The notes: generated from the letters alone by a model not told the origin. A stretch of DNA of 49,455 nucleotides from Candidatus Levybacteria bacterium RBG_16_35_11 (GCA_001781995.1 MFNH01000063.1:1-49455), one strand, 5' to 3'; shown: positions 2,178-36,118, numbered from the stretch's first letter. Translations and numbers: made by a program.

Positions 2178-3335
2178 ATGAAAAAGATTTTTCTTATTCC
2201 TCTTTTTTTAATTTTGGTTTTTTGTTTTAGTGCCCCTGTCTTTGCCGCAAATTTCTCACAAAAAAACGTTACCTTACCCAAAGATGAGATAGTTAATGGC
2301 GATTTTTTTGCTGGCGCTGGCAATGTTAGTGTTCATGGCACAGTTGAAGGAGATGTTTATGTTGCAGGAGGAAATGTTCTTGTTGATGGGACAATTAATG
2401 GAGACTTACTCGCTGCTGGAGGAACAATAATTATAAAGGGAAACATTGCTCACAACGTTAGAGCCGTAGGGGGAAATGTTGTTATTGATAATGCAAAAAT
2501 TGGTGGAAATGTAACCTTGGGCTCTGGCAATGTAACTTTGGCAGATACAAGTGAAGTTTTGGGTAGTCTTGTTGCCGGAGCAGGACAAGTTCAACTCCTA
2601 GGCCCAATTGGTAAGGAAATAAACGTTGCGGCAGGTAAGATTGTTGTGTCCAATAGTGTAAATGGAAATGCAAGAGTTGCAACCGGCAATTTGTCTCTTT
2701 CTAAATCGGCAAAAATAGAAGGCGATTTAACATATTGGAGTAATCAAAAATTAAATCTTTCAGAAGGCGCAACAGTTTCCGGAGAAATTCTGCAAAAAGC
2801 CCTTCCAAAATACGATATACAAGAATTTCAAAAAGGAACTGCTGTGGCTTTTTCCGGTTTTAAAATATTTTTTGGAATTGTTGGTTTTATTGCCGCATAT
2901 ATAATCGGGCTTTTGCTTATTTATCTTCTTCCCGTTTTCACAAAAAGCGTCTCCAATGTTTTAAAAAAGAGATTTTGGCTTAGTTTTGGTATTGGAGTTT
3001 TGGGAGCAATCTTAACTCCAATTATTTTTGTAGTACTTTTAATTAGTCTTATTGGAATCCCAATTGCATTTATTTTTGTTTTTATAATGATCTTGCTTTT
3101 CTACTTTAGCAAGATTTATGTTTCTTACGTTTTGGGAGAGAAAATTTTCTCCGAAAATCAAAAAGTATCAAAGGCATTAATCTTATTTGTAGGACTTTTA
3201 GCTTTCAGTATAATTGCCTTAATCCCCTTTATTGGAGCAATATTTAAAACAGTTGCGGTTTTGTTTGGTTTTGGAGCCTTACTTATTTCTGAAAGAGATT
3301 ACCTGCTTCTTCTTCGCTCCAAAAAATTAGTCTAA
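2178..3335 (+). CDS. exported beta-helical (bactofilin/polymer-forming-like repeat) domain fused to a polytopic membrane domain
   Basis: Sec-type signal peptide (..SAPVFA/AN). Then ~10 degenerate G(D/N)V.V.G.V.GDL repeats. The C-terminal ~150 aa form 4-5 hydrophobic helices. Confidence 0.6.
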   Translation: MKKIFLIPLFLILVFCFSAPVFAANFSQKNVTLPKDEIVNGDFFAGAGNVSVHGTVEGDVYVAGGNVLVDGTINGDLLAAGGTIIIKGNIAHNVRAVGGNVVIDNAKIGGNVTLGSGNVTLADTSEVLGSLVAGAGQVQLLGPIGKEINVAAGKIVVSNSVNGNARVATGNLSLSKSAKIEGDLTYWSNQKLNLSEGATVSGEILQKALPKYDIQEFQKGTAVAFSGFKIFFGIVGFIAAYIIGLLLIYLLPVFTKSVSNVLKKRFWLSFGIGVLGAILTPIIFVVLLISLIGIPIAFIFVFIMILLFYFSKIYVSYVLGEKIFSENQKVSKALILFVGLLAFSIIALIPFIGAIFKTVAVLFGFGALLISERDYLLLLRSKKLV

Positions 3336-3367
3336 GTGGGTTTTGAATTTGTGCTACAATTTTATTA

Positions 3368-4213
3368 ATGACTTCCTCTTTAAGCAAGGAAAAATTAGCT
3401 GATCTTTTGAAAAAAGCAAACCAATTAAGAGTGTTTGTAATTGAAATGCTTAGTGAGGCGAGATCCGGGCATACTGCCGGATCTTTAGGGATGGCGGATA
3501 TTTTTACCGCTTTTTATTTCCACATTTTAAAACATGATCCTAAAAATCCAACTTTTGAAGATAGAGACAGGCTGGTTTTGTCTAATGGCCATATTTGTCC
3601 TGTGCAATATGCGGCAATGGCCCTATCGGGATACTTCCCCGTTGATGAATTAAAGACATTGCGAAAAATTGGGTCAAGATTGCAAGGACATCCCCATCGC
3701 ACCTCACCTCCCGGAATTGAAACCACATCCGGACCCTTAGGCGAAGGTTTGTCTCAGGCAATTGGAATGGCGCTTGCCAAAAAACTAGATAGTAAGGATT
3801 TTCATATTTATTGCTTAACCTCGGATGGCGAGCATGATGAAGGAAACCACTGGGAGGCTGTTATGTTTGCGGGGAAAAATAAGTTATCAAGTATAACTCA
3901 AGTCGTCGACAGAAATAATATTCAGATATGTGGTAAAACCGAAGATGTAATGCCGCTTGAACCCCTTTCGGAAAAGTATAAAGCATTTAACTGGGCTGTT
4001 TTTGAAATTGACGGAAATAACATTAAGGAATTTATAGAAGCTGTAGGAAAAGCAAGAGAAATTCTAGAGAAACCGGTTGTAATAATCGCAAAAACCATTC
4101 CGGGAAAAGGTGTTTCTTTTATGGAAAACGATTATTTATGGCATGGAAAAGCGCCGACAAAAGAAGAAGCGGAACGAGCTCTAAAAGAATTGAATAGTTA
4201 TATGGCTGAATAG
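3368..4213 (+). CDS. transketolase, N-terminal (TPP-binding) subunit
   Basis: 281 aa. GH.GGSLG, DRLVLS.GH and SDGE..EG motifs. Split-gene arrangement with the next ORF. Confidence 0.9.
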   Translation: MTSSLSKEKLADLLKKANQLRVFVIEMLSEARSGHTAGSLGMADIFTAFYFHILKHDPKNPTFEDRDRLVLSNGHICPVQYAAMALSGYFPVDELKTLRKIGSRLQGHPHRTSPPGIETTSGPLGEGLSQAIGMALAKKLDSKDFHIYCLTSDGEHDEGNHWEAVMFAGKNKLSSITQVVDRNNIQICGKTEDVMPLEPLSEKYKAFNWAVFEIDGNNIKEFIEAVGKAREILEKPVVIIAKTIPGKGVSFMENDYLWHGKAPTKEEAERALKELNSYMAE

Positions 4214-4261
4214 TTAGATAGCTATGCAACAATCATCTATTTAGCTATTGAATTTAATAAA

Positions 4262-5236
4262 ATGTTAAATTCCGATTTGAAATTAAACGAAAACTTATTT
4301 AGCGCTAATGTTGAACAAAAAGCAACCCGTGAGGGTTTTGGAGAGGGTTTATCTGAACTAGGAGAAAGAAATCAAAATGTTGTTGTCTTATCTGCCGACC
4401 TTTCCGAATCTACAAAAGCAGAGGATTTTGCCAAAAAATATCCCAATCGCTATTTTGAATGCGGAGTTGCAGAGCAAAATATGGTAGCAATTGCAGCCGG
4501 ACTTGGAGTATCGGGAAAAATTCCTTTTGTTTGCTCTTATTCAGTTTTTTCCCCTGGCAAAGCCTGGGAAACCGTCCGAACAACAATTATATATAACAAT
4601 TCCAATGTCAAAATTGCCGGACACCATGCTGGGATTATGACAGGTCCGGATGGCGCAACTCACCAAGCAACCGAGGATATTGCATCTGTAAGAGCTTGGC
4701 CGGGAATTCAAATATTTTCCCCATGTGATGCAATTGAGGCAAAAAAAGCAACTTTGAAATCTGCTGAAATAGTTGGACCTGTTTATTTAAGGCTAAGTAG
4801 AGAAAAAATTCCGACAATTACTACCGATCAAACACCGTTTGAGGATATTCAACTTTTTTGGATAAGTAAGCAACCAAAAACAGTAATTTTTGCAACCGGT
4901 CATGTTTTATACCAAGCCCTTTTAGCTGCAAGGGAACTGGAAGAAGAAGGGATAAATGTGTTAGTTGCAAACGTTGCCGTTATTAAACCGTTGAATGAGC
5001 AAAAAATAGTTGAATTTGCAAAGCAAGCAGGAAAAGTTGTAACGGTTGAAGACCATCAGATTAAAGGTGGAATGGGAAGTGCAATTGCCGAAGTTTTAGC
5101 AAAAGAATATCCCACAAAAATGGAATTTGTGGGACTTAAGGATACCTTCGCTGAATCTGGGAAATGGCCGGAACTGATGTTAAAATATGGATTGGACTCA
5201 AAAACTATAAAACAGGCAGTTAAGAAATTGGTTTAA
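4262..5236 (+). CDS. transketolase, C-terminal (pyrimidine-binding) subunit
   Basis: 324 aa. R..FG..L.ELG, ECGVAEQNMV and GPDG.THQ..EDIA motifs. Confidence 0.9.
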   Translation: MLNSDLKLNENLFSANVEQKATREGFGEGLSELGERNQNVVVLSADLSESTKAEDFAKKYPNRYFECGVAEQNMVAIAAGLGVSGKIPFVCSYSVFSPGKAWETVRTTIIYNNSNVKIAGHHAGIMTGPDGATHQATEDIASVRAWPGIQIFSPCDAIEAKKATLKSAEIVGPVYLRLSREKIPTITTDQTPFEDIQLFWISKQPKTVIFATGHVLYQALLAARELEEEGINVLVANVAVIKPLNEQKIVEFAKQAGKVVTVEDHQIKGGMGSAIAEVLAKEYPTKMEFVGLKDTFAESGKWPELMLKYGLDSKTIKQAVKKLV

Positions 5237-18822: not shown

Positions 18823-19278
18823 TTAAATTTCAAATCTTACTATTTTTCTAACTATAATGTTCTCCCCTAATTTTCCGATAGTCCCCTTTACCAACTCATT
18901 AATTGTCACAGAGTTATCTCTAATATACTCCTGTTTTAAAAGTGTTGGGATATCTTTAGGGTTCATTGCACAAACTTGCATTGCAATTTCATGGGCAAGG
19001 TTTTTAAATTCGTCTGTCCTTGCGACAAAGTCGGTCTCAGATAAAATCTCTATCATGGACCCGACCTTTCCGTTTTGGTGGATATAGCATTCGACAAGTC
19101 CAAGGGATGTTTTTCGATCCTGCTTTTTTTCCGCTTTTTCTATTCCCCTTTTCTTAAGCCACAAAAGAGCCTTCTTATAATCGCCTTTTGATTCCTCTAA
19201 GGCAACCCTACAATCGGCTATACTTGCCGATGTCTCATTTCGTAGTTTTTTTAGATCTTCCAGATTTACTTTTAGCAT
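18823..19278 (-). CDS. tsf: elongation factor Ts (short form, 151 aa)
   Basis: N-terminal UBA-like LKKLRNETSASIADCR.AL.E. rpsB-tsf-frr synteny. Confidence 0.85.
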   Translation of the reverse strand: MLKVNLEDLKKLRNETSASIADCRVALEESKGDYKKALLWLKKRGIEKAEKKQDRKTSLGLVECYIHQNGKVGSMIEILSETDFVARTDEFKNLAHEIAMQVCAMNPKDIPTLLKQEYIRDNSVTINELVKGTIGKLGENIIVRKIVRFEI

Positions 19279-20240: not shown

Positions 20241-20269
20241 TTGACTAATTACTATTGACTATTTAAACT
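20241..20269 (+). promoter_or_regulatory. sigma70-type promoter, leaderless geometry (TTGACT-17-TAAACT, 7 nt to ATG 20277)
   Basis: Read directly. Same box sequence upstream of the next two genes. Confidence 0.6.
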
Positions 20270-20276
20270 AAACTTG

Positions 20277-20906
20277 ATGGCTAAGTCAAAAGGTAGATCC
20301 CGGGGTAGTCTACGAAGAAAGCTTTCTATAATTGCTTTTGTTGCAATAATAATTGCTATTCCCCTAACCGTTGTCATATCCCAACAGCAACAAGAAACTC
20401 GACAACAAGCGGCAGGAACAGAATGTATTTATGCCTTTAGAACCCTTTCCATTTGTAACTCTTACTGCTCCAGTCAGTCGGGTAAAACATGCCTGCAAAG
20501 TTTAAGTAGAAGATGGGGATGTTGTTCTCGCACAATATCGCCAACGCCTGCACCCACTATCGGGACTCCTCTTAATTGGTGTTCCCTTTGTAGTGATACA
20601 TACAAATTTTGTCGGATTTCATGGCAAGGTAATCAGACTTGCACTGACAACCAAAATGCGAAATATACGTTAGACTGCAGCTGCACACAAGGAACAATTA
20701 ACTGCGGAGTAAAAGGAATAAATACTTCAAGTTGCAAAAGTAGTCCTACTCCATATATCCCTAAAGCCACACCAACTCCCATAATGAAAGTTAGCTGTGC
20801 TCCCGCTGAAAACCAAGCTCAAGCTGCAAGTTGGGCAAAATTATGCGTGGGGGGAACTACAAGATATACGGGCAAAGCTTGGGAAGTATGTTGTCCTACT
20901 CGGTAG
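20277..20906 (+). CDS. secreted/anchored cysteine-rich protein with conserved IPLTV-QQQQETRQQA N-terminal motif
   Basis: Basic N-terminus, TM helix and Q-motif, then three Cys-rich modules split by P/T linkers. ATG at 20277; the track start is the preceding TTG. Confidence 0.7.
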   Translation: MAKSKGRSRGSLRRKLSIIAFVAIIIAIPLTVVISQQQQETRQQAAGTECIYAFRTLSICNSYCSSQSGKTCLQSLSRRWGCCSRTISPTPAPTIGTPLNWCSLCSDTYKFCRISWQGNQTCTDNQNAKYTLDCSCTQGTINCGVKGINTSSCKSSPTPYIPKATPTPIMKVSCAPAENQAQAASWAKLCVGGTTRYTGKAWEVCCPTR

Positions 20907-21087: not shown

Positions 21088-21330
21088 CCTTGACTAATTA
21101 CTATTTACTAATCTAAACTAAACTTAATGGACGAGAATCCTGTTGTGGGACCAGTTAATCCGGAATCTACAGCGCCAGTTGAAGAAAAAAGATCTCTTTG
21201 GCAGGTTATTTTATCCTCCCGCTCCAAAACCTTCGGAATCCTTGCAATAATAGTTGTAATTGCCGCAATCCCCTTAACCGTAATTATTTCTCAGCAACAA
21301 CAGGAAACAAGACAACAAGCCGCGGATTGC
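21088..21330 (+). repeat. 5' module (promoter + first ~66 codons), near-identical copy at 22749-22992
   Basis: Direct comparison shows only scattered substitutions. The encoded peptides differ at a handful of positions. Confidence 0.85.
21090..21119 (+). promoter_or_regulatory. promoter TTGACT-18-TAAACT, 7 nt to ATG 21127
   Basis: Read directly. Near-identical to 22751-22780. Confidence 0.6.
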
Positions 21331-22728
21331 TGGCCTGATGGAGCTCTTTGTGGCGGCGATGCAAGTCCTTGCTGTGGCAGTTGTATTAATCTCCATTGTA
21401 GTGGGGGATCAACAGCAACAACAACCACTAAAGGAGTGATAGAAACAGGTCCAAATACTAAAACAACAACTACAACTGCACCCGGAACGGGTGGTCCTCC
21501 CGGCACGATTAGCCCGGGGGAAGGACATTTTGCATGCAACACTAGTAATTTCACGTGTTACCCTGTTTCTAATAATATAGGATACGAAAGTTTATTGGAT
21601 TGTCTAGGTTCCTGTTCTAAATTGGGTACATCAACTACTACTAAGCCAAGGGAAAGCCCAATTAGCACAACAACTACCACAACTGCTACTAAGACACATT
21701 TTGCTTGCAACAGTAGCAAAAAGTGTGTACTTGTTTCCGGCGGCGGAGTGGATCTGTGCACAAACGATTATTCATGCACTCAGACAACAACCACCATATC
21801 TGGATCAACACATACCATTTGTTCTAACGAACTATGCATAGCTGTTGCCGGCGCAGGAACAAGTCAGTGTGCGAACAAAAGTGAATGCCCATGCTTATCC
21901 GGAAGTAGAGTTTGGTATCAGATGGTAAATGGGGTCTGCGTACGAGGAGATGATCGATGCTTATATAGCACCTGTACGCCAATTTCAACAACCACATCCA
22001 CTACGAGTACAACAACCACATCCACCATTCCAAGTTCAACAACCACAACCATTGCTGCTACCACAACCACAAGGGCTGGAACAACCACCTCAACAACCGG
22101 AGGAGGAACTACGACCACAACCGGCGGAGGTTCAACTACTACTACCCAACCACCCGGCAATATGATACTTGCCTTTAATGTTGGACTTGATGGAATAGGA
22201 GCTGCTGGAGATCACAAACTCCCTTGTACATCTTTAGCAACATGCGCTTCTAACAAAAATCCAAGAATAACTGCGCGAGATCTTAATATTACAGTCTTAG
22301 ACCAAAGCAAGGTAGATAAGACTCCGAATCTAAAAATAACCGTAAATTACGATAGCACAACAGGCACCTTTAAGGGAAATGCCTCTGCTAACCTGACTCC
22401 CGGAAGCTACACCATAAAAGTTAAATCTCCGGGTCTTTTAAGAAAAACCTTGGTCAGTATCCAAAATCTTGTTGTCGGAACTAATCAAATTCCCTCTGCT
22501 AACTTAACAGTTGGAGATATTAACACTCAAGGAGATTCAAATAATGCCTTAGATATTCTTGACTATAATGTTTTGATAAGCTGTTCAATCTATAGTAACG
22601 ACAACAAAGTACTTTGCAATAGTGTTGCCGATTACAAGACCTTATCGGATCTTAATGATAATGGGGCAGTTGACGAAATCGATTACAACCTGTTCTTAAG
22701 AGAATATTCTGTCCAAAACGGAGACTAG
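21127..22728 (+). CDS. modular surface protein: Q-motif signal anchor, knottin-like module, three 4-Cys modules, Thr-rich linkers, beta-sandwich domain, C-terminal dockerin
   Basis: 533 aa. C-6-C-6-CC-2-C-4-C module at 21328-21399. The C-terminus GDINTQGDSNNALDILDYNVLIS...SDLNDNGAVDEIDYNLFLREY is a dockerin-type duplicated Ca-loop/helix. Confidence 0.75.
   Translation: MDENPVVGPVNPESTAPVEEKRSLWQVILSSRSKTFGILAIIVVIAAIPLTVIISQQQQETRQQAADCWPDGALCGGDASPCCGSCINLHCSGGSTATTTTKGVIETGPNTKTTTTTAPGTGGPPGTISPGEGHFACNTSNFTCYPVSNNIGYESLLDCLGSCSKLGTSTTTKPRESPISTTTTTTATKTHFACNSSKKCVLVSGGGVDLCTNDYSCTQTTTTISGSTHTICSNELCIAVAGAGTSQCANKSECPCLSGSRVWYQMVNGVCVRGDDRCLYSTCTPISTTTSTTSTTTTSTIPSSTTTTIAATTTTRAGTTTSTTGGGTTTTTGGGSTTTTQPPGNMILAFNVGLDGIGAAGDHKLPCTSLATCASNKNPRITARDLNITVLDQSKVDKTPNLKITVNYDSTTGTFKGNASANLTPGSYTIKVKSPGLLRKTLVSIQNLVVGTNQIPSANLTVGDINTQGDSNNALDILDYNVLISCSIYSNDNKVLCNSVADYKTLSDLNDNGAVDEIDYNLFLREYSVQNGD
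22156..22728 (+). repeat. 3' module (beta-sandwich + dockerin, ~190 codons), paralogous copy at 24267-24836
   Basis: Includes an identical 38-nt run atgatacttgcctttaatgttggacttgatggaatagg in both copies. Confidence 0.85.
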
Positions 22729-22750
22729 CAAAAAATAAGATTGGGCCCTC

Positions 22751-22780
22751 TTGACTATTATCTAAAAACTAATCTAAACT
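22751..22780 (+). promoter_or_regulatory. promoter TTGACT-18-TAAACT, 7 nt to ATG 22788
   Basis: Read directly. Confidence 0.6.
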
Positions 22781-22787
22781 AAACTTA

Positions 22788-24836
22788 ATGGATGAGAATC
22801 CTGTTGTGGGACCAGTTAATCCGGAATCTACAGCGCCAGTTAGAGAAAAAAGATCTCTTTGGCAGGTTATTTTGTCCTCCCGCTCCAAAACTTTCGGAAT
22901 CCTTGCCATCATTGTTGTAATTGCCGCAATCCCCTTAACGGTTATTGTTTCCCAACAACAGCAAGAAATACGGCAAAGGGCGGAAGGACCTTCTTGTCTA
23001 ATTGGCGGTGAAAGATGTGAGCAAAATGCGGCTTGTTGTTCAGGTATTTGTGATTCCAACACCAGAAGGTGTGCTGTATCCGTTCCACCGACACCGGGAC
23101 CGGGAGAATATGTTTTTTGCAGTAATACGCCGCTTAATATCCCAGATTACTCTTCTGCCTATCAGGATCTTGTTGTAACGGAAGGAGGGGCAGTAAGAGA
23201 CCTTAATCTCTTAGTTGATGCAGCCCACACTTATGTCGGAAACCTGCGTTTTACCTTACAAAGACAAACTTCGGGAGTTCCTTATCGGATGATAAATTAC
23301 AACAGAAACGGTGATGGAACTTGCTCAGGAAATAACATTAACGTATTGTTAGATGATCAGGCATCATCAACTGTTGACAATGTGTGTAATGAATCAACTC
23401 CCGCAATAAGCGGAACTCGTAGACCTAACCAACCGCTCTCAAATTTTAACAGTCAAGATCTTGCGGCAACCTGGAGATTAACGGTTTACGATAATAGGAG
23501 GGATCATGATGATAGGATTGATACAGGAATCGTTAATCGATGGTGTCTTATATTTACAAAATCGCCGGTTACCCCAACTCCAACCCCTACCCCTACTAGT
23601 GCACCAACCCCTACCCCTACTCCTACTCCATTTTGCGTTGCATTAGGAGGATCTTGTGCCATAAATACGCTTTGTTGCCAAGGACAATGTAATCCAATAA
23701 ATCAAACCTGCATGTATATTAATACAACTCCAACTCCAACCCCAACTTCAACCTATACAATCTCAGGCTATGTTTTTATAGACAGTAATGGAAATGGAAC
23801 TAAAGACAGCAGTGAGCCTTATTACACTACTGGTAAAACCGTAGCATTATTTTCGTACGCTAAGGGTAATCCAGCAGACTATTTATGGGTAGATAATGTA
23901 AGCAGCAGCTATACATTTAGTAATCAGCCTCCTGGTCAATATTCCCTAACTTTATCAAGCGTTCCATCTGACTATACAATACCAGACAATCCCCATGTAT
24001 TTACTCTCAATGGTAATTATACCCACAACTTTAGAATTGTTCCAACCACCCCTACGCCAGCTCCAGTAAACGGAGCTTGTGGAGGTTCCGCGAAAGCCTA
24101 TTCTGAATCTGAAACAACATGGCCTGATTCGACATGGCCGAATGGCTTGTGTTTGGTTGGAGATTCAAATCCAGTAAGCCCTGCTTTCCCCGCTATCGGA
24201 AGTACAACCAGTTGGACGTGCCAAGGGACAAACGGAGGAACCAATGCAAATTGTTCTGCCAGCAGAGGTAACATGATACTTGCCTTTAATGTTGGACTTG
24301 ATGGAATAGGGGCTGCTGGAGATCATCCACTCCCATGTACTTCTTTACAGACTTGTACTTCTAATAAGAACCCAAGAAGGACTGCAAGAGACCTTAATAT
24401 AACATTCCTGCAAAATAAAGATTATCAATATCCGGATCAAAAGATAACCATTACCTATGACGCAGCAACAGGAACCTTTAAGGGTAATGCCTCCGCTAAT
24501 CTCGCTCCCGGAAACTACACCATAAAGGTAAAAAGTCCAGGTTTGCTTAGGAAAACATTAATAAATATTCAGGCCCTTGTTGCGGGGACAAATCAAATTC
24601 CTTCTGGCAACCTTACAAACGGAGATATCAATACGCAAGAAGATTCAAATAATGCCTTGGATGTTCTAGACTACAATGTTCTAATAAGCTGCTGGGTTTA
24701 CAGCAACGATCACGGCACATTATGTAATAGCGTTGCCGAATACAGGACTTTATCGGATCTTAATGATAATGGAACAATTGACGAAATAGACTATAATCTA
24801 TTCTTAAGGGAATTCTCGGTTCAAAACGGAGACTAA
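22788..24836 (+). CDS. modular surface protein: Q-motif signal anchor, two knottin-like modules, proprotein-convertase P-domain-like, SdrD B-like, 4-Cys CG..LC..WTC..NGG..C module, beta-sandwich domain, dockerin
   Basis: 682 aa. P-domain-like DLNLLVDAAHTYVGNLRFTLQ...WRLTVYD. SGYVFIDSNGNGTKD (SdrD-B/Cna-like). The C-terminal ~190 aa are paralogous to the previous gene. Confidence 0.75.
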   Translation: MDENPVVGPVNPESTAPVREKRSLWQVILSSRSKTFGILAIIVVIAAIPLTVIVSQQQQEIRQRAEGPSCLIGGERCEQNAACCSGICDSNTRRCAVSVPPTPGPGEYVFCSNTPLNIPDYSSAYQDLVVTEGGAVRDLNLLVDAAHTYVGNLRFTLQRQTSGVPYRMINYNRNGDGTCSGNNINVLLDDQASSTVDNVCNESTPAISGTRRPNQPLSNFNSQDLAATWRLTVYDNRRDHDDRIDTGIVNRWCLIFTKSPVTPTPTPTPTSAPTPTPTPTPFCVALGGSCAINTLCCQGQCNPINQTCMYINTTPTPTPTSTYTISGYVFIDSNGNGTKDSSEPYYTTGKTVALFSYAKGNPADYLWVDNVSSSYTFSNQPPGQYSLTLSSVPSDYTIPDNPHVFTLNGNYTHNFRIVPTTPTPAPVNGACGGSAKAYSESETTWPDSTWPNGLCLVGDSNPVSPAFPAIGSTTSWTCQGTNGGTNANCSASRGNMILAFNVGLDGIGAAGDHPLPCTSLQTCTSNKNPRRTARDLNITFLQNKDYQYPDQKITITYDAATGTFKGNASANLAPGNYTIKVKSPGLLRKTLINIQALVAGTNQIPSGNLTNGDINTQEDSNNALDVLDYNVLISCWVYSNDHGTLCNSVAEYRTLSDLNDNGTIDEIDYNLFLREFSVQNGD

Positions 24837-24840
24837 GCTA

Positions 24841-24869
24841 TTGACTAAATGCTCTTGACTATTTACTAT
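24841..24869 (+). promoter_or_regulatory. promoter TTGACT-17-TACTAT, 6 nt to ATG 24876 (cohesin-like gene)
   Basis: Read directly. A second TTGACT at 24855-24860. Confidence 0.5.
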
Positions 24870-24875
24870 TGATAT

Positions 24876-25487
24876 ATGCCTAAAAGAACTTTGCTTTTAA
24901 TATTAGCTTTAATTATAGTTACTGTTGGACTGGTTTGGCTTTCGGTTTATACGGTTCCCCAAGAAAAAGCACCGACCGTTACAAAAAAACCCGCTGTTGT
25001 GCCTTTTGCCAAAACAACAATCACTCTTTCCTCCTCTCCAAGCGCAGTCACAAATGAATTAAATTTGTATTCTTTGGACACTCAAATATCGACGGGTGAC
25101 AACAAAATTACGGCTGTCCAGCTGGAAATATCGTACGATCCAAAAGCATTAACAAATGTAGACATTCTTCCCGGAGATTTCCTTAATGATCCTATTGTCC
25201 TTTTAAAAAATGTAGATGAAAAAAACGGTAGGATTTCTTATGCCATTGCAATTAAAATGGGACAAGCTGCGGTTTCTGGCAACGGGAGCATTGCCAAAAT
25301 TGAATTTTCTCCCCTTGAGGGATCTAATCTTACAACAACGTCTATAAATTTTCTGCCAAAAACTAAAGTTTCTGCAGAAGGGCAATCAAAATCAGTACTA
25401 AAGTCGGCTCTGGGGACTATTATAGATTTAGTTAAACTATCTCCACAAACCATCTCTTCGCCATCTTCCTTAAATACAACAGAGTAA
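24876..25487 (+). CDS. membrane-anchored cohesin-like domain protein
   Basis: 203 aa. N-terminal TM helix, then ITAVQLEISYDPKALTNVDILPGDFL...GRISYAIAI...GSIAKIEF, resembling the cohesin (PF00963-type) signature. Confidence 0.6.
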   Translation: MPKRTLLLILALIIVTVGLVWLSVYTVPQEKAPTVTKKPAVVPFAKTTITLSSSPSAVTNELNLYSLDTQISTGDNKITAVQLEISYDPKALTNVDILPGDFLNDPIVLLKNVDEKNGRISYAIAIKMGQAAVSGNGSIAKIEFSPLEGSNLTTTSINFLPKTKVSAEGQSKSVLKSALGTIIDLVKLSPQTISSPSSLNTTE

Positions 25488-26014: not shown

Positions 26015-26299
26015 TTATTTCGTACATTTGAGCTCCTGGTTTATTCTTTCACTTATAAAAATTTTCATTAAAGACTGATATGGAACATCCCTTTTATTTG
26101 CAAGTTCTTTAATACGTGCTAGCAAATAAGACGGTAAACGTAACGAAATAGACTCCGTAGACGGTTTAAGGTCTGATAAATCTAATTTTACTGGCTTACT
26201 ATAATCAAAATACTTTGATGTATCCGCCTTAGCCCAAAAATCCCTTTCCTCGTCTTCGTTTTTAAATTTAGGAATTTGCTTAAGTTTTTTCATATTCAC
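26015..26299 (-). CDS. brnA: BrnA-type antitoxin (CopG/RHH C-terminus)
   Basis: IPKFKNEDEERDFW...ISLRLPSYLLARIKELANKRDVPYQSLMKIFI. Paralogous to 46449-46709. Confidence 0.8.
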   Translation of the reverse strand: MNMKKLKQIPKFKNEDEERDFWAKADTSKYFDYSKPVKLDLSDLKPSTESISLRLPSYLLARIKELANKRDVPYQSLMKIFISERINQELKCTK

Positions 26300-26573
26300 C
26301 TCTTTCCTTTTTATGCATATCTCTTGCTGAAATTACTCTGATTTTTTGATTTCTTAAGGTAAAAACGATTATTAATCTTCTATTTCTATTTGTGATTCCA
26401 TAGGCTAAGAATCTTTTTTCCAGTAAAGAATGCTTAGCATCTTCAAATATTTTTAAAGGTCTGTTGCCGAAAACTTCTTCGCATTCCGTATTAAAAACCT
26501 TATGTTTCATGAGGTTTTTATTTATATTACCTTTATCCCAATCAAACCCGGCTGGCCTAGGAAATTTAATCAC
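26280..26573 (-). CDS. brnT: BrnT-type toxin (DUF497 ribonuclease)
   Basis: GFDWDKGN...RVISARDM.KKER.YE. I chose the GTG at 26573 because TTGACA-17-TATACT ends 6 nt upstream of it. The track's TTG start lies inside the promoter spacer. Confidence 0.75.
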   Translation of the reverse strand: MIKFPRPAGFDWDKGNINKNLMKHKVFNTECEEVFGNRPLKIFEDAKHSLLEKRFLAYGITNRNRRLIIVFTLRNQKIRVISARDMHKKERGEYEKT

Positions 26574-26579
26574 AAATGT

Positions 26580-26608
26580 AGTATATTGCAAAAATATACA
26601 TTTGTCAA
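26580..26608 (-). promoter_or_regulatory. brnTA promoter TTGACA-17-TATACT, 6 nt to GTG 26573
   Basis: Read directly. Confidence 0.55.
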
Positions 26609-26623
26609 ATGACTGAAGAAGGT

Positions 26624-27724
26624 TTAAGGGGCAATCTCCTGCCAGGTGTAGTTGCTATAACGCATTAACGTAGGAAGATTTAAGAGAAAATCAGGTCTTG
26701 CGGAAACAAAGAAAACAGGACATATTAAATTTCCATCGCATAAATCCCTGTTGTTTACAAGTGAACCAGATGAACCGCCGGCTCCGGTTACAACATTTCC
26801 GGCTAAATTCAGCCTTAAATCAGAACCATGGGCAGAGCAATCATGATATCCATCGATTATAAAGTCATTATCTGCCGAATACATTCCTTCAAGATTGGTA
26901 TTTGTAGATGTAATATCACTTTCGCCAATGCTCTTATCAACTGTAATATCCCCTTTTACGACAAAAACTGCAGTAGAACCCGGATTAACCTTAATTTCAG
27001 TTGATATTAAAAGGTCTCCATCTACCAAAATAACAAAATTCTGGTTTTGCGAAAATGTAACTTCCCCTCCTGTTAATTTTAAATTACCACTTGCATTATA
27101 CAGACCATGTGTAAACGTACCATTTGTTATTGCCACTGCCAAATCGCAATTTCCAAGATCGGAACAAATTGTTTCAAGAGCAATCGGAGTTAATCCTCCT
27201 TGACGTGCTTTTGAATAAATATAGCTGTAAGAAGTTTTTCTGCTTAATTGAGTATTAAGTGGCGCAGGAAAGCTTCCACCCACTACCCAGCCAAAATTAT
27301 CCGGTGGAGATTGTCTTGAAGCCAACCCCGCTCCAAAATCATAATCGTTGTTTCCTGTAAATACTATTCCCGGAGTACCACTCTCTTCGCCTTGTAAGGA
27401 GGTATATGAATTATAATAACCGTTAGGAATGTTAGGGTTGGTATTGCAATATTGTGCTGGTGAGTCCGAAGGACTTCCCGGAAGAGGATTTGTAAAGGTA
27501 CCCCCAGAAACAAATGATCCGTCTCCTTCTACTCGTACATCCGAATCTTTTGTTTGCACCCAAGGTTGTGAATTGTTTATTCCAAAGTTCACTTCCACAT
27601 CGGCGCTGACAACATTCAGGTTATAAAAAAGCGCAAGAAATAAAAATAAAATTATTAAAATTCTGGAAAATGCTAATATTAACTTTTTCTTAAATATTTT
27701 CATAATTTTATTCATTGCAAACAT
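26624..27724 (-). CDS. secreted protein of unknown family (beta-helix-like C-terminal half)
   Basis: 366 aa. Signal peptide/anchor (..LALFYNLNVVSA/DV). Last gene of a three-gene overlapping operon. ATG 27703 is an alternative start. Confidence 0.6.
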   Translation of the reverse strand: MFAMNKIMKIFKKKLILAFSRILIILFLFLALFYNLNVVSADVEVNFGINNSQPWVQTKDSDVRVEGDGSFVSGGTFTNPLPGSPSDSPAQYCNTNPNIPNGYYNSYTSLQGEESGTPGIVFTGNNDYDFGAGLASRQSPPDNFGWVVGGSFPAPLNTQLSRKTSYSYIYSKARQGGLTPIALETICSDLGNCDLAVAITNGTFTHGLYNASGNLKLTGGEVTFSQNQNFVILVDGDLLISTEIKVNPGSTAVFVVKGDITVDKSIGESDITSTNTNLEGMYSADNDFIIDGYHDCSAHGSDLRLNLAGNVVTGAGGSSGSLVNNRDLCDGNLICPVFFVSARPDFLLNLPTLMRYSNYTWQEIAP

Positions 27725-29432
27725 AGGCCGATGCTCCTGTCATGCCTGAGATATTTTGCCTTGTTGCGTCCGAGCCATTCCAGCCTGTTGTAAAATACCC
27801 CGTCGGCAAGCTCTGAATTATAACAGTTTCGCATGAATTCCCACTTGAACAACTGTAAGAATATATTTTGCATCCCGATGAAGGATCTGTAGCCCAATTG
27901 GAATCGGCAGGATCAAATACGTGTGCAACACCGCAGAAATTAATTGTAACCGGAATATCAAGGCACTTTTCGGGAATTGTCGCGTTTTTATTGAAAGTCT
28001 GATTTGAGTTGTAATCATAAAACACAAATCCACTTGCATTATAAGAAACTGTTGTTGGAGTTGGGGTAGCAGCGGCTATAATTCCAAAATTAATATCGGA
28101 GAGGTTGCTAGCAACGTTTAATGTCCTTTGGGTAATTCCGTCTGATGACTCATAGCCATTTGGGACATTAAGGGTTACCGTCCAGCTTCCGGCAGTTGCT
28201 GTAAAAATGTACAAACCGGTTGCTCCTGTTGGAGGGTTGTTTGTCGGATTTCCCCCTGCTTTCTGATAGATAATGATTGCCCCCTGAAAACCGCCCTCTC
28301 CCGCTTCTTTCACACCGTCTCTGTCTGAATCAATATAAACATATCCTGAAACAGTATAGTTAGGAATACCTGTTGGTGTCGGTGTTGGAATTCCTGTGGG
28401 AGTTGGGGTTGGAGTTCTTGTCGGAGTTGGAGTTGGAGTCGATGCGATATCACAGGCATTATTACAGCTGGTTTGGTTGGTATATGAACCACTGGCATTT
28501 ACAGAACAATTGCCTGTGCTTGTATTGCAGGAGTAGTGAATATCGCAGGCGTTATTACAGGTTGTCTGGTTAGTGTAACCCGTATCGTAGGAAACCGCAG
28601 AACAATTACCGGTGCCGTTATTACATTCATAATAAGTTGTCGATGTAATGTCACAGTTATTATTACAGGTTGTTTGATTTGTATATGAGCCATTGGAATC
28701 AACTACGCAGTTACCGGTGCCGGTATTGCAGGAGTAGTGAATATCGCAGGCGTTATTACAGGTTGTCTGGTTGGTATATGAACCATTGGAATCCGAGTAA
28801 CAATTACCGGTGCCTGTATTGCAGGAATAATGATTTACTGTGGTTGTGGTTGTTGAAGGAGGCTGTGTGGTGGTAGTTGTGGTGGCGGTAGTTGTAGTGG
28901 TTGTGGTATCACAACGGGGATCTGGACAATTATAGACCTCTCCACCATAACAACCGGATCTATTGCACTGACTATTTGGTTCGTACCATGATACCCAACA
29001 ACCTATTTGAGTAGTACTGCATCTTCCAGGACAAAATGTATCGTTTGCTGAACATATGCATGTTCCGGCAGTACTACCGCTATATGAACACTGATATTCA
29101 TCTGCTGGTTGACATGTTCCACAATTTAAATTGTTAGTTCCACCACAAGCTGACCATGTCCCGCAAGACCTCCCGTAATAGGAGCAACTCATAGGGCAGG
29201 CCGTGGTCGTTGTCCCCCCGCCACAAGTATAACTATCAAGACAAGTTGGGCTTGTGTAACATATACCACCATAACACCCGGTATACCAACTACAACCAAG
29301 CTCCGAGCAAGAGTATCCTTGATTTAAATTACATTCATACCAACATGTGGCTGCTAAAGCAGGTTTAGGCTTGCTTAAAAATAAGCTTAATGCTATAAAT
29401 AAAAACAACCCTAATATAATTATTTTTCTCAT
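27708..29432 (-). CDS. secreted cysteine-rich modular protein (N-terminal Cys-rich region, four tandem 4-Cys modules, PT linker, SdrD B-like domains)
   Basis: 574 aa. Sec signal ..KPALA/AT. Repeats HYSCNTGTGNC...SYTNQTTCNNACDI x4. SGYVYIDSDRDGVKE. Confidence 0.7.
   Translation of the reverse strand: MRKIIILGLFLFIALSLFLSKPKPALAATCWYECNLNQGYSCSELGCSWYTGCYGGICYTSPTCLDSYTCGGGTTTTACPMSCSYYGRSCGTWSACGGTNNLNCGTCQPADEYQCSYSGSTAGTCICSANDTFCPGRCSTTQIGCWVSWYEPNSQCNRSGCYGGEVYNCPDPRCDTTTTTTTATTTTTTQPPSTTTTTVNHYSCNTGTGNCYSDSNGSYTNQTTCNNACDIHYSCNTGTGNCVVDSNGSYTNQTTCNNNCDITSTTYYECNNGTGNCSAVSYDTGYTNQTTCNNACDIHYSCNTSTGNCSVNASGSYTNQTSCNNACDIASTPTPTPTRTPTPTPTGIPTPTPTGIPNYTVSGYVYIDSDRDGVKEAGEGGFQGAIIIYQKAGGNPTNNPPTGATGLYIFTATAGSWTVTLNVPNGYESSDGITQRTLNVASNLSDINFGIIAAATPTPTTVSYNASGFVFYDYNSNQTFNKNATIPEKCLDIPVTINFCGVAHVFDPADSNWATDPSSGCKIYSYSCSSGNSCETVIIQSLPTGYFTTGWNGSDATRQNISGMTGASAYVCNE
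28446..28832 (-). repeat. four tandem ~93-105-nt coding repeats (4-Cys modules)
   Basis: attgcaggagtagtgaatatcgcaggcgttattacaggttgtctggtt recurs about 204 nt apart. Peptide repeats HYSCNTGTGNC..SYTNQTTCNNACDI. Confidence 0.85.
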
Positions 29433-31538: not shown

Positions 31539-32891
31539 TTATAAAGCATCGACAACTTCATCTATGGCTGCCCCTTGTCCCAAACCTCGATTGTAAGTTA
31601 TTCCTGTTGAATCCGGATTATTTGGATCTGAAACTTCTAGCTTTATTGCTTGATTTAAAACATCTTTTATTTCATTTACTCTGATTACCCCATTTGTAGC
31701 ATGATTTTGCATAATTTCAGTCATGAATGCAAGTGCTCTTCCTTCGTATTGTCCTACTGTTTCATTACCTTCTTTTGGTAATAATTGAAACGTTAATAAT
31801 TTATCTATTCCGCCAGTATCTGAGGAATAATTGAAGAAAAGAGTTGTCGAGAAAATTCTAGGATCCATTTGCATTGCGACGGCAAGTTTTTTATTTATAT
31901 ATGTTGCACTTCCTTTTGGATTCTCCCAAGAAAATGAAGTTTCATTTGAGCTATGTACCAAATAAAAATCGATTTCCCGGCTGGCATTAACAGGATGGTA
32001 AGCATCAATTTTTTCAACATCAACTACATTGGGAGGAAGAGTGGGTTTTAAAAATTCAGGGATGTTTTGCAGATTATATTGCTCAATATTAAGTAATCCC
32101 GCACCTGTTTTTTGCTGTCTTTCGTAAGTTTTTAAATTCCAAAGCATTTGCGCAACTTCACCTCTTGTTGCCGACTCAAAAGGATTCCAAAATCGGTTGT
32201 AGGCAATTAAGTTTATTAATAATCCATTATAATCGGCTACCCTCAAAGGACCACCATGAGTCTCTCCGGCATCGACCATGGTTTGATATCCTTCGGGTGG
32301 AGTAGCCAAGCGTCCGGGCTGAAGGTTTTGGGCAGCTCTTATCATCATGGTATCAACTTGCGCCCTGGTAATATTATCCAAAGGTGCAAATTTTTTCGGG
32401 CTTTTTCCTAAAGTAATTCCGTATTTGGCAACTACTGCAACGTAATTATCGGGATAAAAGTCATTCGGGCCGCCATTCATGACATCATCGAATGGACAAA
32501 TATCTTGCTCTGAAACCGGTAAGTCAATTGCTCCAACGATTATTTTGGCAAATTGCTGCCTGGTTATTAGTTTGTCCGGACCAAAAGTCCCATCATTAAA
32601 TCCGCTAATTATTCCCTCCTGAGCCATACCGTTTATTGCTTCGTAATATGGGTGAGTTACTGGAACATCTGAAAAACCTATGAATTCTGCTTTTGTTAAT
32701 TTAGCTTTTTGTTCTTGGGTTGTTGAAGTTGACTCTGCTAACGCAGTAGCTGCCCTACCCAGAGGAGTAGCAAGCGCCAAGCCCCCAAATGCAATTCCTG
32801 ATATCTTTAGAAAATCTCTCCTTGAAAAAGACCTTCCGTTAACAAAGTTTTCTTGTTGACCGGTATTTTTTGGCTCTCGATCTTTTCTCAT
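31539..32891 (-). CDS. S-layer homology (SLH) domain protein with twin-arginine signal
   Basis: 450 aa. SRRDFLK...ATALA signal. Probably three SLH-like repeats (FSDVP..HPYYEAINGMAQEGIISGF.DGTFGPD..ITRQQFA; FDDV...; ..ATRGEVAQML). C-terminal ~190 aa unknown. Confidence 0.65.
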   Translation of the reverse strand: MRKDREPKNTGQQENFVNGRSFSRRDFLKISGIAFGGLALATPLGRAATALAESTSTTQEQKAKLTKAEFIGFSDVPVTHPYYEAINGMAQEGIISGFNDGTFGPDKLITRQQFAKIIVGAIDLPVSEQDICPFDDVMNGGPNDFYPDNYVAVVAKYGITLGKSPKKFAPLDNITRAQVDTMMIRAAQNLQPGRLATPPEGYQTMVDAGETHGGPLRVADYNGLLINLIAYNRFWNPFESATRGEVAQMLWNLKTYERQQKTGAGLLNIEQYNLQNIPEFLKPTLPPNVVDVEKIDAYHPVNASREIDFYLVHSSNETSFSWENPKGSATYINKKLAVAMQMDPRIFSTTLFFNYSSDTGGIDKLLTFQLLPKEGNETVGQYEGRALAFMTEIMQNHATNGVIRVNEIKDVLNQAIKLEVSDPNNPDSTGITYNRGLGQGAAIDEVVDAL

Positions 32892-35072: not shown

Positions 35073-36059
35073 TCAACTTTCCAACCTGTTTTTAATTTCT
35101 TCAATGGTTAACCTCTCTTCCCTCTGCAATCTTCGTATCTCTTTTACTTTCTCGATCATAGAGCGATCAAACAACTGATATCCGGCTCGTGTATGCTCTG
35201 CCACTTCAAGCAGTCCTTTTTCCAGCCAGTGCCGTATGGAATGCAATGTTTCCCCGGTCTCCTCTGCCAGCTCTCCTATTCTTAGTAATCTTTTTTGCAC
35301 AACAGAGGTAGGCGTTTTTCCCTCCACTGCGTCAAGATAAATGTCAAGAGAACGATCAATAGCTTTATAAATAACTTTGTAGTAATCTTTAAAATTATTA
35401 TTAAGCTGTGCTTTCTGAATACTATCTATATATGCTTCCCTGTCTTCTTTCCTAACAAGAGCAGGCGGATAACCTTTTTGCATTAAAAGCAGGTTCATAA
35501 GAAGCCGTGCGGTCCTGCCGTTTCCATCCAAAAAAGGATGTATTGAAACAAGCTTTATGTGAGCATCTGCCGCTATTTTTACCGGATGATCATTATTTTT
35601 GCCATGCAGCCATTCAAAGAAAGAGTCCATAAGTTCCGGCACTTTTAGAGGATTAGGTAATATGACGTCCGTCCCTTTTATTCTTACCGCTACGTTTCTG
35701 TATTTTCCCGCATCGTCATCATCGATTTTTTTAAGGATTAATCCATGCATGCCTAAAAGCTCGCGTTTTGTTAAATCCTCCCGTTTTTTGCCGACAAAAT
35801 CTTTTATAAAATCAAGAGCTTGGGCATGATTTATTGCTTCCAAATGTTCTTTTAGCGTTTTTCCTCTTACTGTTATGCCTTCCTCGACCACGAGCGCAGT
35901 TTCTTTTCTTGTTAAGGTGTTGCCTTCTATAGCGTTTGAAGTGTAAGTTAGCTCTACCTTAAACCATTCATCAAGGTTGTTAACTAACGCCAAAGACAAC
36001 GGTCTAAAGCTGTCTAGCTTTTGTTTCTTTTGAGTAAGCTTACTTAATAAATCATTCAT
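35073..36059 (-). CDS. Fic family AMPylase-type protein fused to a C-terminal MerR-type HTH domain
   Basis: SNAIEGN matches the inhibitory (S/T)xxxE(G/N) motif. HPFLDGNGRTAR is the Fic core. The C-terminal LLRIGELAEETGETLHSIRHWLEKGLL...YQLFD is MerR-like. Start may instead be 36101. Confidence 0.75.
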   Translation of the reverse strand: MNDLLSKLTQKKQKLDSFRPLSLALVNNLDEWFKVELTYTSNAIEGNTLTRKETALVVEEGITVRGKTLKEHLEAINHAQALDFIKDFVGKKREDLTKRELLGMHGLILKKIDDDDAGKYRNVAVRIKGTDVILPNPLKVPELMDSFFEWLHGKNNDHPVKIAADAHIKLVSIHPFLDGNGRTARLLMNLLLMQKGYPPALVRKEDREAYIDSIQKAQLNNNFKDYYKVIYKAIDRSLDIYLDAVEGKTPTSVVQKRLLRIGELAEETGETLHSIRHWLEKGLLEVAEHTRAGYQLFDRSMIEKVKEIRRLQREERLTIEEIKNRLES

Positions 36060-36089
36060 TTTTATAACCCTATGGTTTTTATTAAAATA

Positions 36090-36118
36090 AGTATAGGGCA
36101 TCGCCCTATGGTTGTCAA
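36090..36118 (-). promoter_or_regulatory. Fic-MerR gene promoter TTGACA-17-TATACT with dyad ATAGGGC-3-GCCCTAT (36093-36109) in the spacer
   Basis: Read directly. CCCTATGGTT is repeated at 36068-36077 and 36104-36113. Confidence 0.5.

Follow-up and report, generated by a model that had tools for sequence, protein, structure and literature searches.

In the type II anchoring of Clostridium (Acetivibrio) thermocellum, the C-terminal dyad of X-module and dockerin (XDoc) of CipA is held by the cohesins of SdbA, OlpB or Orf2p (PDB 2B59, 3KCP and 5G5D). In R. flavefaciens, an adhesin is attached to the cell by docking of the CttA XMod-Doc on the ScaE cohesin, a joint that bears about 600 pN; ScaE is linked to peptidoglycan by a C-terminal sortase motif, and CttA carries cellulose-binding modules (PMC4266597). 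The cohesin fold is also found outside plant cell-wall degradation, in Archaeoglobus fulgidus (2XDH) and in a toxin complex of Clostridium perfringens (2JH2, 2VO8 and 2W1N), and non-cellulosomal cohesins and dockerins as such are already known. Here we describe a locus in a 49,455-bp stretch of DNA (MFNH01000063.1, positions 1-49455; the whole of it is called the window below) from Candidatus Levybacteria bacterium RBG_16_35_11 (GCA_001781995.1), in which two genes for XDoc-tailed modular proteins (A and B) are followed by a gene for a membrane-helix cohesin protein (C). The locus is also present on NODE_1598 of ENA ERZ505139, and its homologues point to a Levybacteria-like member of the Microgenomates. 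Based on homology and structure models, we propose with a probability of roughly 0.6 that this locus is a non-cellulosomal cohesin-XDoc surface-tethering cassette of a bacterium in the candidate phyla radiation (CPR; Levybacteria-like, Microgenomates), which is tiny and probably symbiotic. Little is known about how ultra-small CPR/Patescibacteria cells attach to their hosts, and the majority of their surface proteins lack annotation.

The XDoc tails of A and B and the cohesin of C

The three open reading frames (ORFs) lie on the + strand at 21127-22728 (A, 533 aa), 22788-24836 (B, 682 aa) and 24876-25487 (C, 203 aa). These positions and sizes agree with those of an initial annotation made from the sequence alone, and the peptides it had quoted were all found in A, B and C. 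A and B are paralogous at their ends only, the first 65 aa being 77% identical and the last ~190 aa 75% identical, while their middles are unrelated. B and C are separated by a 39-nt spacer and share the same frame, with 3 stop codons across the junction.

The tail of A consists of GDINTQGDSNNALDILDYNVLIS, followed by a 21-aa spacer with two Cys residues (CSIYSNDNKVLCNSVADYKTL) and then SDLNDNGAVDEIDYNLFLREY, and the tail of B is the same apart from a few substitutions. The initial annotation had read this duplicated Ca-loop/helix segment as a dockerin alone. The peptides, the two-Cys spacer and the canonical second loop stood, whereas the module common to A and B turned out to be ~190 aa rather than ~70 aa in length, an Ig-like X-module in front of the dockerin having been overlooked. 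Loop 2 of both proteins is the canonical 12-residue D-L-N-D-N-G-A-V-D-E-I-D (DLNDNGAVDEID in A), and the Cys pair in the linker between the two dockerin segments is kept in about half of the family.

Full-length A and B gave no dockerin match in Pfam or NCBIfam, and a single-sequence PDB search with the A tail returned nothing meaningful. The tail nevertheless belongs to a clear family with 21 close homologues, which come from Levybacteria wherever the source names the organism, and Pfam Dockerin_1 matched 7 of 23 aligned members of this family at E < 0.01 (best 2.2e-8). Searching the PDB with the family profile recovered the XDoc of C. thermocellum CipA (2B59_B at 6e-8; 3KCP_A) and that of A. 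cellulolyticus (4WI0_B and 4U3S_B), at E-values from 6e-8 to 1e-6 and with alignments covering the end of the Ig-like X-module and both Ca loops. The AlphaFold model of the last 189 aa of A (predicted local distance difference test score, pLDDT, 88.8; predicted template modelling score, pTM, 0.84) comprises a beta-sandwich, with strands at model residues 2-116, followed by four helices at 133-142, 151-155, 159-163 and 173-186. Foldseek found four PDB chains at E <= 0.001 for this model, all of them XDoc dyads aligned over 185-188 columns; 5G5D_B, 4U3S_B and 2B59_B are among the dyads matched over the full length, and the E-value then jumped to 5e-3 with unrelated Ig folds. In these superpositions, the two Ca-loop helices and connecting helices of a dockerin fold in the A model align to the dockerins of 5G5D_B, 4U3S_B and 2B59_B, and both the profile and Foldseek place an Ig-like X-module directly N-terminal of, and packed on, the C-terminal dockerin. 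Because the family profile and the AlphaFold/Foldseek comparison both match XDoc dyads, the conserved tail of A and B is, as judged by profile and model, an X-module plus type II dockerin dyad rather than a bare dockerin. In A, the family hidden Markov model (HMM), AlphaFold and Foldseek place the X-module, an Ig-like beta-sandwich, at aa 344-457 (22156-22500) and the dockerin at aa 459-533 (22501-22728 including the stop codon). In B, the X-module occupies aa 494-606 (24267-24608; alignment to A and family HMM) and the dockerin aa 608-682 (24609-24836 including the stop codon; family HMM and a Dockerin_1 score given below).

C is a cohesin with an N-terminal membrane helix, as the initial annotation had suggested in calling it membrane-anchored and cohesin-like. 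It matches Pfam Cohesin PF00963 at residues 74-174 with 44.6 bits against a cutoff of 24.1 (E = 2.2e-11), a family carried by nearly all of 70 homologues of C, and it contains ITAVQLEISYDPKALTNVDILPGDFL and GSIAKIEF, the signature quoted earlier. The AlphaFold model (pLDDT 92.4) shows a transmembrane helix at aa 3-24 (24882-24947), a ~22-residue Pro/Lys/Thr stalk at aa 25-46 and, at aa 47-184 (25014-25427), a beta-sandwich that resembles the nine-stranded jelly-roll of solved cohesins. A profile built from 36 homologues matched cohesins only in the PDB, and the best 50 Foldseek matches were all cohesins, with a target-normalised template modelling (TM) score of up to 0.78; the non-cellulosomal cohesins of Archaeoglobus and C. 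perfringens were among them. The type II cohesin subtype is defined by an extra alpha-helix between strands 6 and 7 plus beta-flaps, as seen in SdbA and ScaB structures. DSSP found no helix inside residues 47-184 of the C model, which superposes better on type I cohesins (TM 0.72-0.78) than on the type II cohesins 5M0Y and 2BM3 (0.51-0.52). By contrast, the sequence profile of C ranks ScaB type II cohesins first, at 1e-5.

Gene order and cargo in related loci

To place the locus among its relatives, 34 cohesin-seeded loci from species-representative genomes (mostly Levyibacteriota or Patescibacteria) and 76 XDoc-seeded loci from metagenomes were searched in six frames with our own HMMs. Gene order was counted for 126 XDoc genes with at least 900 bp of downstream sequence, a cohesin neighbour being defined as one on the same strand and within 400 bp. 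The commonest arrangement, with 53 of the 126, was an XDoc gene followed on the same strand by a small transmembrane-cohesin-only gene, with spacers of 30-100 bp. In 41 cases the next gene was an XDoc-bearing member of the same run (another XDoc gene in 29, a cohesin+XDoc gene in 12), and in the remaining 32 it was neither. Conserved adjacency, which the initial annotation had named as a check on its proposal, is thus seen as one or more XDoc genes followed by a transmembrane-cohesin gene at many related loci.

This family is large. Against 1.84 billion cluster representatives, with XDoc clusters defined at 50% identity, the XDoc profile matched 3,345 at E <= 1e-3, 2,048 at E <= 1e-10 and 1,172 at E <= 1e-30, and the module sits at the extreme C-terminus in nearly all of the 150 best matches. 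Since the XDoc is invisible to Pfam in 16 of the 23 aligned members, databases show such proteins only as 'cohesin domain-containing protein' or 'hypothetical protein'. Some records carrying a Patescibacteria-type cohesin/XDoc operon are metagenome-assembled genomes titled Gammaproteobacteria, Methylomirabilota or Limnocylindrales (L008, L012-L014, L019, L021, L022 and L032, also L024 and L028); these taxonomic labels are probably wrong, or the contigs mis-binned.

Gene order bears directly on whether C is the partner of A and B. One could suppose that the modules are real but the genes merely co-regulated, with the XDoc of A and B docking on another cohesin, such as that of a cohesin+XDoc adaptor encoded elsewhere by this genome or one borne by a host or sister cell, and C receiving other dockerin proteins. 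Proteins of ~400 aa that combine a cohesin, an XDoc and the leader described below in one chain are indeed frequent in related genomes; the loci have 48 such ORFs, and the database has more than 605 of these proteins, annotated at most as 'cohesin domain-containing protein'. The visible portion of this genome amounts to only 49 kb, which is too little to bear out the 'self-contained' scaffold of the initial annotation. Moreover, the dockerins in the related loci (L002-L110) fall into at least two classes, one with a short or mid linker containing the Cys pair and the other with a long 'DCGYGE..PLP' linker, so that partner choice is not trivial. However, the order of XDoc gene and transmembrane-cohesin gene on one strand with short spacers is the commonest found, the dockerins beside the anchor are consistent in class (among 39 XDoc genes that immediately precede an anchor gene, 37 encode short or mid linkers, as B does), and the HMMs detected no further cohesin or dockerin, and no cohesin+XDoc adaptor, in any frame of the window. 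We therefore regard a partner other than C as unlikely.

Long-linker dockerins behave differently, an anchor gene coming next in only 2 of 19 cases and a vWA-XDoc gene in 13 of 19. Such tracking of gene position by linker class fits a hierarchical, perhaps chain-like, assembly. Cohesin+XDoc proteins resembling adaptor scaffoldins are exemplified by L025:6749-7948, L094:117-1346 and 3068-4267, L093:2247-6035 and L017:6862-9904, and a frequent operon order is [COH+XDOC][vWA-XDOC][COH+XDOC][TM-COH] (COH, cohesin; TM, transmembrane). In three further proteins (L039:8798-10000, L052:8762-10003 and L055:9101-10003), an extra canonical dockerin near the N-terminus (Dockerin_1, best E = 2e-24) accompanies the XDoc, and these proteins would thus have two plugs.

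A more tentative extension, which we consider rather doubtful, is that this lineage uses cohesin-XDoc docking to build non-covalent surface fibres resembling pili. A transmembrane-cohesin protein such as C would form the base, the ~400-aa cohesin+XDoc proteins would stack head to tail, and the putative fibre would end in XDoc proteins whose vWA, SdrD-B or Cys-rich modules act as tip adhesins in attachment to the host. The order would depend on two or more specificity classes of dockerin, and the dedicated leader (..IPLTV..SQQQQETRQRA) would single out the subunits to be exported and released. The recurrent operon order above and the position-dependent linker classes fit this possibility, under which the window would hold a minimal version consisting of a base and two alternative tips.

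The cargo of A, between leader and X-module (21325-22155), consists of Cys-rich modules with Thr-rich linkers between them and matches no Pfam family. The cargo of B (22983-24266) comprises a Cys-rich knot, a possible P-domain-like module, Pro/Thr linkers, an SdrD-B domain (aa 324-398; 23757-23981) and a Cys/Trp-rich module. Disulfide-rich knots, a P-domain-like fold and SdrD-B-like folds had been proposed for these regions in the initial annotation. The SdrD-B domain of B passed the curated Pfam threshold (SdrD_B, 33.6 bits against a cutoff of 29.7) and was the sole cargo match in A and B to do so. The P-domain was not accepted, P_proprotein scoring 14.8 bits against a cutoff of 21, and the Cys-rich modules of A, of B and of gene U, a further cluster member described below, matched no Pfam family. 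Close by on the - strand, two overlapping genes (26624-27724 and 27708-29432) encode large secreted proteins without XDoc, one with a DUF7305-like region and the other with Cys-rich repeats ('HYSCNTGTGNC...'), Thr/Pro linkers and an SdrD_B domain. The repeats of this second protein (574 aa) look like the A modules by eye, with no significant similarity (E = 0.21).

A Pfam scan of 115 cargo regions of the XDoc family matched 49 families, among them SdrD_B (26 members), Cohesin (22), VWA (19), CarboxypepD_reg (17), SpaA (14), CBM_4_9 (5), fn3 (5) and Peptidase_S8 (2). Family-wide, the cargo is adhesin-like (SdrD-B, vWA and SpaA). The use of cohesin and XDoc modules, together with the few family members bearing CBM_4_9 (5 of 115) or lectin domains, might suggest a minimal cellulosome for polysaccharide breakdown. 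Yet A, B, C, U and 12 other scanned neighbour genes contain no glycoside hydrolase, carbohydrate esterase or polysaccharide lyase family, and none is among the 25 commonest of the 49 cargo families. A scaffoldin carries several cohesins and usually a carbohydrate-binding module (CBM), whereas C has one cohesin and no CBM, and neither a scaffoldin nor a CBM was seen elsewhere in the window. A minimal cellulosome is thus highly improbable, and for this locus effectively refuted, in line with the earlier remark that the cargo modules are not enzymes and that the cluster is not a cellulosome.

Leader, promoter-like motif and the proposed tether

Another feature overlooked in the initial annotation is the N-terminal leader common to A (aa 1-66; 21127-21324, from the motif and the alignment to B) and B (aa 1-65; 22788-22982), in which the 65 shared residues include the transmembrane helix. 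In A, a cytoplasmic N-terminal tail is followed by a hydrophobic helix of ~20 residues ending in IPLTVIIS and then by QQQQETRQQAA; the B leader ends in QQQQEIRQRA. The same leader (IIAIPLTVVISQQQQETRQQAA) is carried by gene U (20274-20906, + strand; the public gene call begins at ATG 20277), which encodes a Cys-rich, putatively exported protein of 209/210 aa with no XDoc and no Pfam match. U has only the hydrophobic helix and the following motif, IPLTVVISQQQQETRQQAA, in common with A and B, and nothing else is alike. The leader segments map to 21229-21324 in A, 22890-22982 in B and 20313-20414 in U, and they also occur in XDoc proteins of the related loci.

Among full-length XDoc proteins, 120 of 126 begin with a hydrophobic helix, typically followed by ..IPLTV..SQ(Q/K)QQE(T/I)R(Q/S)(Q/R)A. 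A strict form of this motif was present in 52 of 119 XDoc proteins versus 1 of 78 cohesin-only anchors, and it was found on both XDoc and cohesin+XDoc proteins. In the anchors, by contrast, the helix is at the extreme N-terminus and a Pro/Thr/Lys stalk comes after it. The leader matched no signal-domain model of NCBIfam or Pfam, and a neighbourhood scan of the window revealed no sortase, signal peptidase or secretion genes. Judging from its distribution, the leader may be a signal for sorting or processing that is specific to this lineage.

U, A, B and C are further linked by a promoter-like motif. The pattern TTGACT-N17/18-TAMWMT-N5-9-DTG has exactly 4 matches in the window against 0.02 expected, and the four copies directly precede the starts of the four genes, one each, and occur nowhere else in the window. 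The initial annotation had noted the same promoter type for A, B and C, which holds and extends to U. The copies are TTGACT-N17-TAAACT at 20241-20269 (U; the -10 ends ~8 nt before ATG 20277), TTGACT-N18-TAAACT at 21090-21119 (A; ending 8 nt before the ATG, with no Shine-Dalgarno sequence) and at 22751-22780 (B), and TTGACT-N17-TACTAT at 24841-24869 (C; inside the B-C spacer and ending 7 nt before the ATG), all on the + strand. Only this four-fold specific motif is significant, as promoter-like sites overall were not in excess (12 in the window versus 12.9 in shuffles). In the segments 20241-20279, 21090-21129, 22751-22790 and 24841-24878, the -10-like hexamer lies 7-8 nt from the start codon and no Shine-Dalgarno sequence is visible, so that the U, A, B and C transcripts would be leaderless or nearly so. 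Despite their 39-nt spacing, B and C would each have their own promoter.

Taken together, these features suggest the following scheme for the tethering cassette. A, B and the tether-less U would be exported through the Sec pathway by the lineage-specific leader, which would probably be removed at or near the conserved ..RQQA. The C-terminal XDoc of A or B would then bind the single cohesin of C with Ca2+, as homology and the conserved gene order suggest, and A and B would compete for one type of socket. C, whose helix and fold are those of the model above, would be held in the cytoplasmic membrane by its uncleaved N-terminal helix and short stalk. Borne on the Thr/Pro-rich linkers, the N-terminal Cys-rich and SdrD-B modules would point outward and form adhesin-like tips, and a non-covalent, mechanically strong plug-and-socket joint would take the place of a sortase/LPXTG or SLH anchor.

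Several observations weigh against this scheme. In the set of reference genomes, about half of the transmembrane-cohesin genes lack an XDoc gene immediately upstream (15 of 32 have one). In addition, the C cohesin is anchored N-terminally and ScaE C-terminally, so that high mechanical strength cannot simply be assumed. A third set of points concerns the dockerin itself. With PF00404 run on the tails alone, B scored 13.6 bits against a cutoff of 22.9 (E = 0.081) and A gave no match; the dockerin proposed in the initial annotation is thus supported by the family profile and the fold but not by Pfam on A and B themselves, whereas the cohesin proposed alongside it lies above its cutoff. Ca-loop 1 of A and B contains a 4-residue insertion (NTQG/NTQE), giving a D1-to-D12 spacing of 15 that is seen in these two alone among 134 family dockerins; the canonical spacing of 11 is seen in 109 of the 134, including those of the closest relatives L035 and L036. 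The best register of this loop, Q1-x-D3-x-N5-...-D9-x-x-D12, has Gln rather than Asp at position 1, and the confidence of the A tail model is lower around it.

The loop 1 insertion and the sub-threshold Pfam score could also mean that the two modules no longer bind each other. The tail would then be a terminal domain, stabilised by Ca and either structural or glycan-binding, and C a membrane protein with an Ig-like fold that is unrelated to it. A further point in favour of this explanation is that cohesin- and dockerin-like modules whose partners are unknown have reportedly been described outside cellulosomes by Peer et al. in 2009 (FEMS Microbiol Lett). However, loop 2 is fully conserved, as are helix 3 and the X-module. 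One of the two symmetric faces of a dockerin can suffice, a dual binding mode being named in the PDB title of 2VN5, and the tight conserved synteny of both modules is hard to explain without an interaction between them. Loss of binding is accordingly, in our estimate, very unlikely.

The remaining point against the tethering scheme is the putative cleavage site, since neither QQA-A in A nor QRA-E in B is a textbook AXA. Together with a hydrophobic segment of ~20 residues, which resembles a transmembrane helix rather than a short Sec h-region and follows a 35-aa cytoplasmic tail, this could mean that the helix of A and B stays uncleaved. Both proteins would then be N-terminally anchored, and their XDoc would engage C in their own membrane or on an adjacent cell, giving loops, lateral lattices or cell-cell junctions instead of outward adhesins. 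But the strongly conserved polar motif after the helix, present on XDoc proteins and not on anchors, looks like a processing or sorting signal; clear AXA sites directly follow this motif in many family members (e.g. RSRASA and HASAST); and a second anchor would be redundant. We consider retention of the helix improbable, about as much so as a partner other than C, and favour export with cleavage followed by docking on C.

As a locus type, the cassette offers a concrete and testable attachment architecture made from two well-understood modules. If A and B do bind C, the uses of the cohesin-dockerin system would grow beyond the assembly of enzymes to include surface display in general within a major radiation of bacteria, new orthogonal cohesin-dockerin pairs would become available for protein engineering, and candidate host-adhesion proteins would be flagged in hundreds of uncultured genomes.

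Other genes of the window, all on the - strand, include, immediately downstream of the cassette, genes for a BrnT-like toxin and its CopG-like antitoxin (26015-26591; Pfam families on the gene calls of the public contig) and a 342-aa protein with a Fic/DOC domain and a C-terminal MerR-type helix-turn-helix domain (35073-36101). The EF-Ts homologue at 18823-19278 has only 151 aa, around half the length typical of bacteria, in keeping with a reduced CPR genome.

Comparison with known anchoring systems

In the literature covered on cohesins and dockerins in CPR, Patescibacteria, Microgenomates, Levybacteria and Saccharibacteria, with subscription journals outside that coverage, we came across no account of this operon type. 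Sortase/LPXTG surface proteins and pili of Gram-positive bacteria offer a functional analogy only. They use the same cargo vocabulary (SdrD-B, SpaA prealbumin folds and the vWA tip-adhesin), and their C-terminal attachment with N-terminal modules pointing outward is what we propose for A and B. Their attachment is covalent, whereas non-covalent protein-protein docking is proposed here, and the locus showed neither an LPXTG motif nor a sortase. The non-cellulosomal cohesins of A. fulgidus and C. perfringens share the fold of C. Unlike the present locus, these systems do not consist of XDoc-cargo genes followed by a transmembrane-cohesin gene, lack the CPR leader motif and do not form a lineage-wide family of more than 1,000 clusters.

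Type II anchoring in C. thermocellum resembles the cassette in two respects: A and B, like CipA, carry a C-terminal X-module and dockerin dyad by profile (E = 6e-8) and by fold, and the proposed role is likewise the attachment of a secreted modular protein to a cell-bound cohesin. The differences lie in each of the parts. Unlike the SLH wall protein of C. thermocellum, C is a protein of 203 aa with one cohesin and an N-terminal membrane helix, and this cohesin is compact, without the helix and type I-like, unlike the type II cohesins. The XDoc is found here on adhesin-like proteins and not on an enzyme-loaded scaffoldin, and the dockerin linker contains a Cys pair. The window also encodes, on the - strand at 31539-32891, a 450-aa protein with two SLH domains (E = 1.4e-20); the organism thus has a classical wall-anchoring module, yet its cohesin is anchored by a membrane helix.

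CttA/ScaE is the closest functional analogue, in that a monovalent, cell-bound cohesin holds a non-enzymatic adhesin via its XDoc, with adhesive modules at the N-terminus and the XDoc at the C-terminus. Likeness in sequence is remote, the R. flavefaciens CttA/ScaE chains not being among the matches listed for the XDoc model. A and B carry Cys-rich, SdrD-B and unknown modules, unlike the cellulose-binding modules of CttA, and the membrane helix of C, as opposed to the sortase motif of ScaE, would give the opposite pulling geometry. Relative to both cellulosome anchoring and CttA/ScaE, this locus is set apart by a membrane-helix anchor, a compact type I-like cohesin, adhesin-type cargo and a lineage-specific leader.

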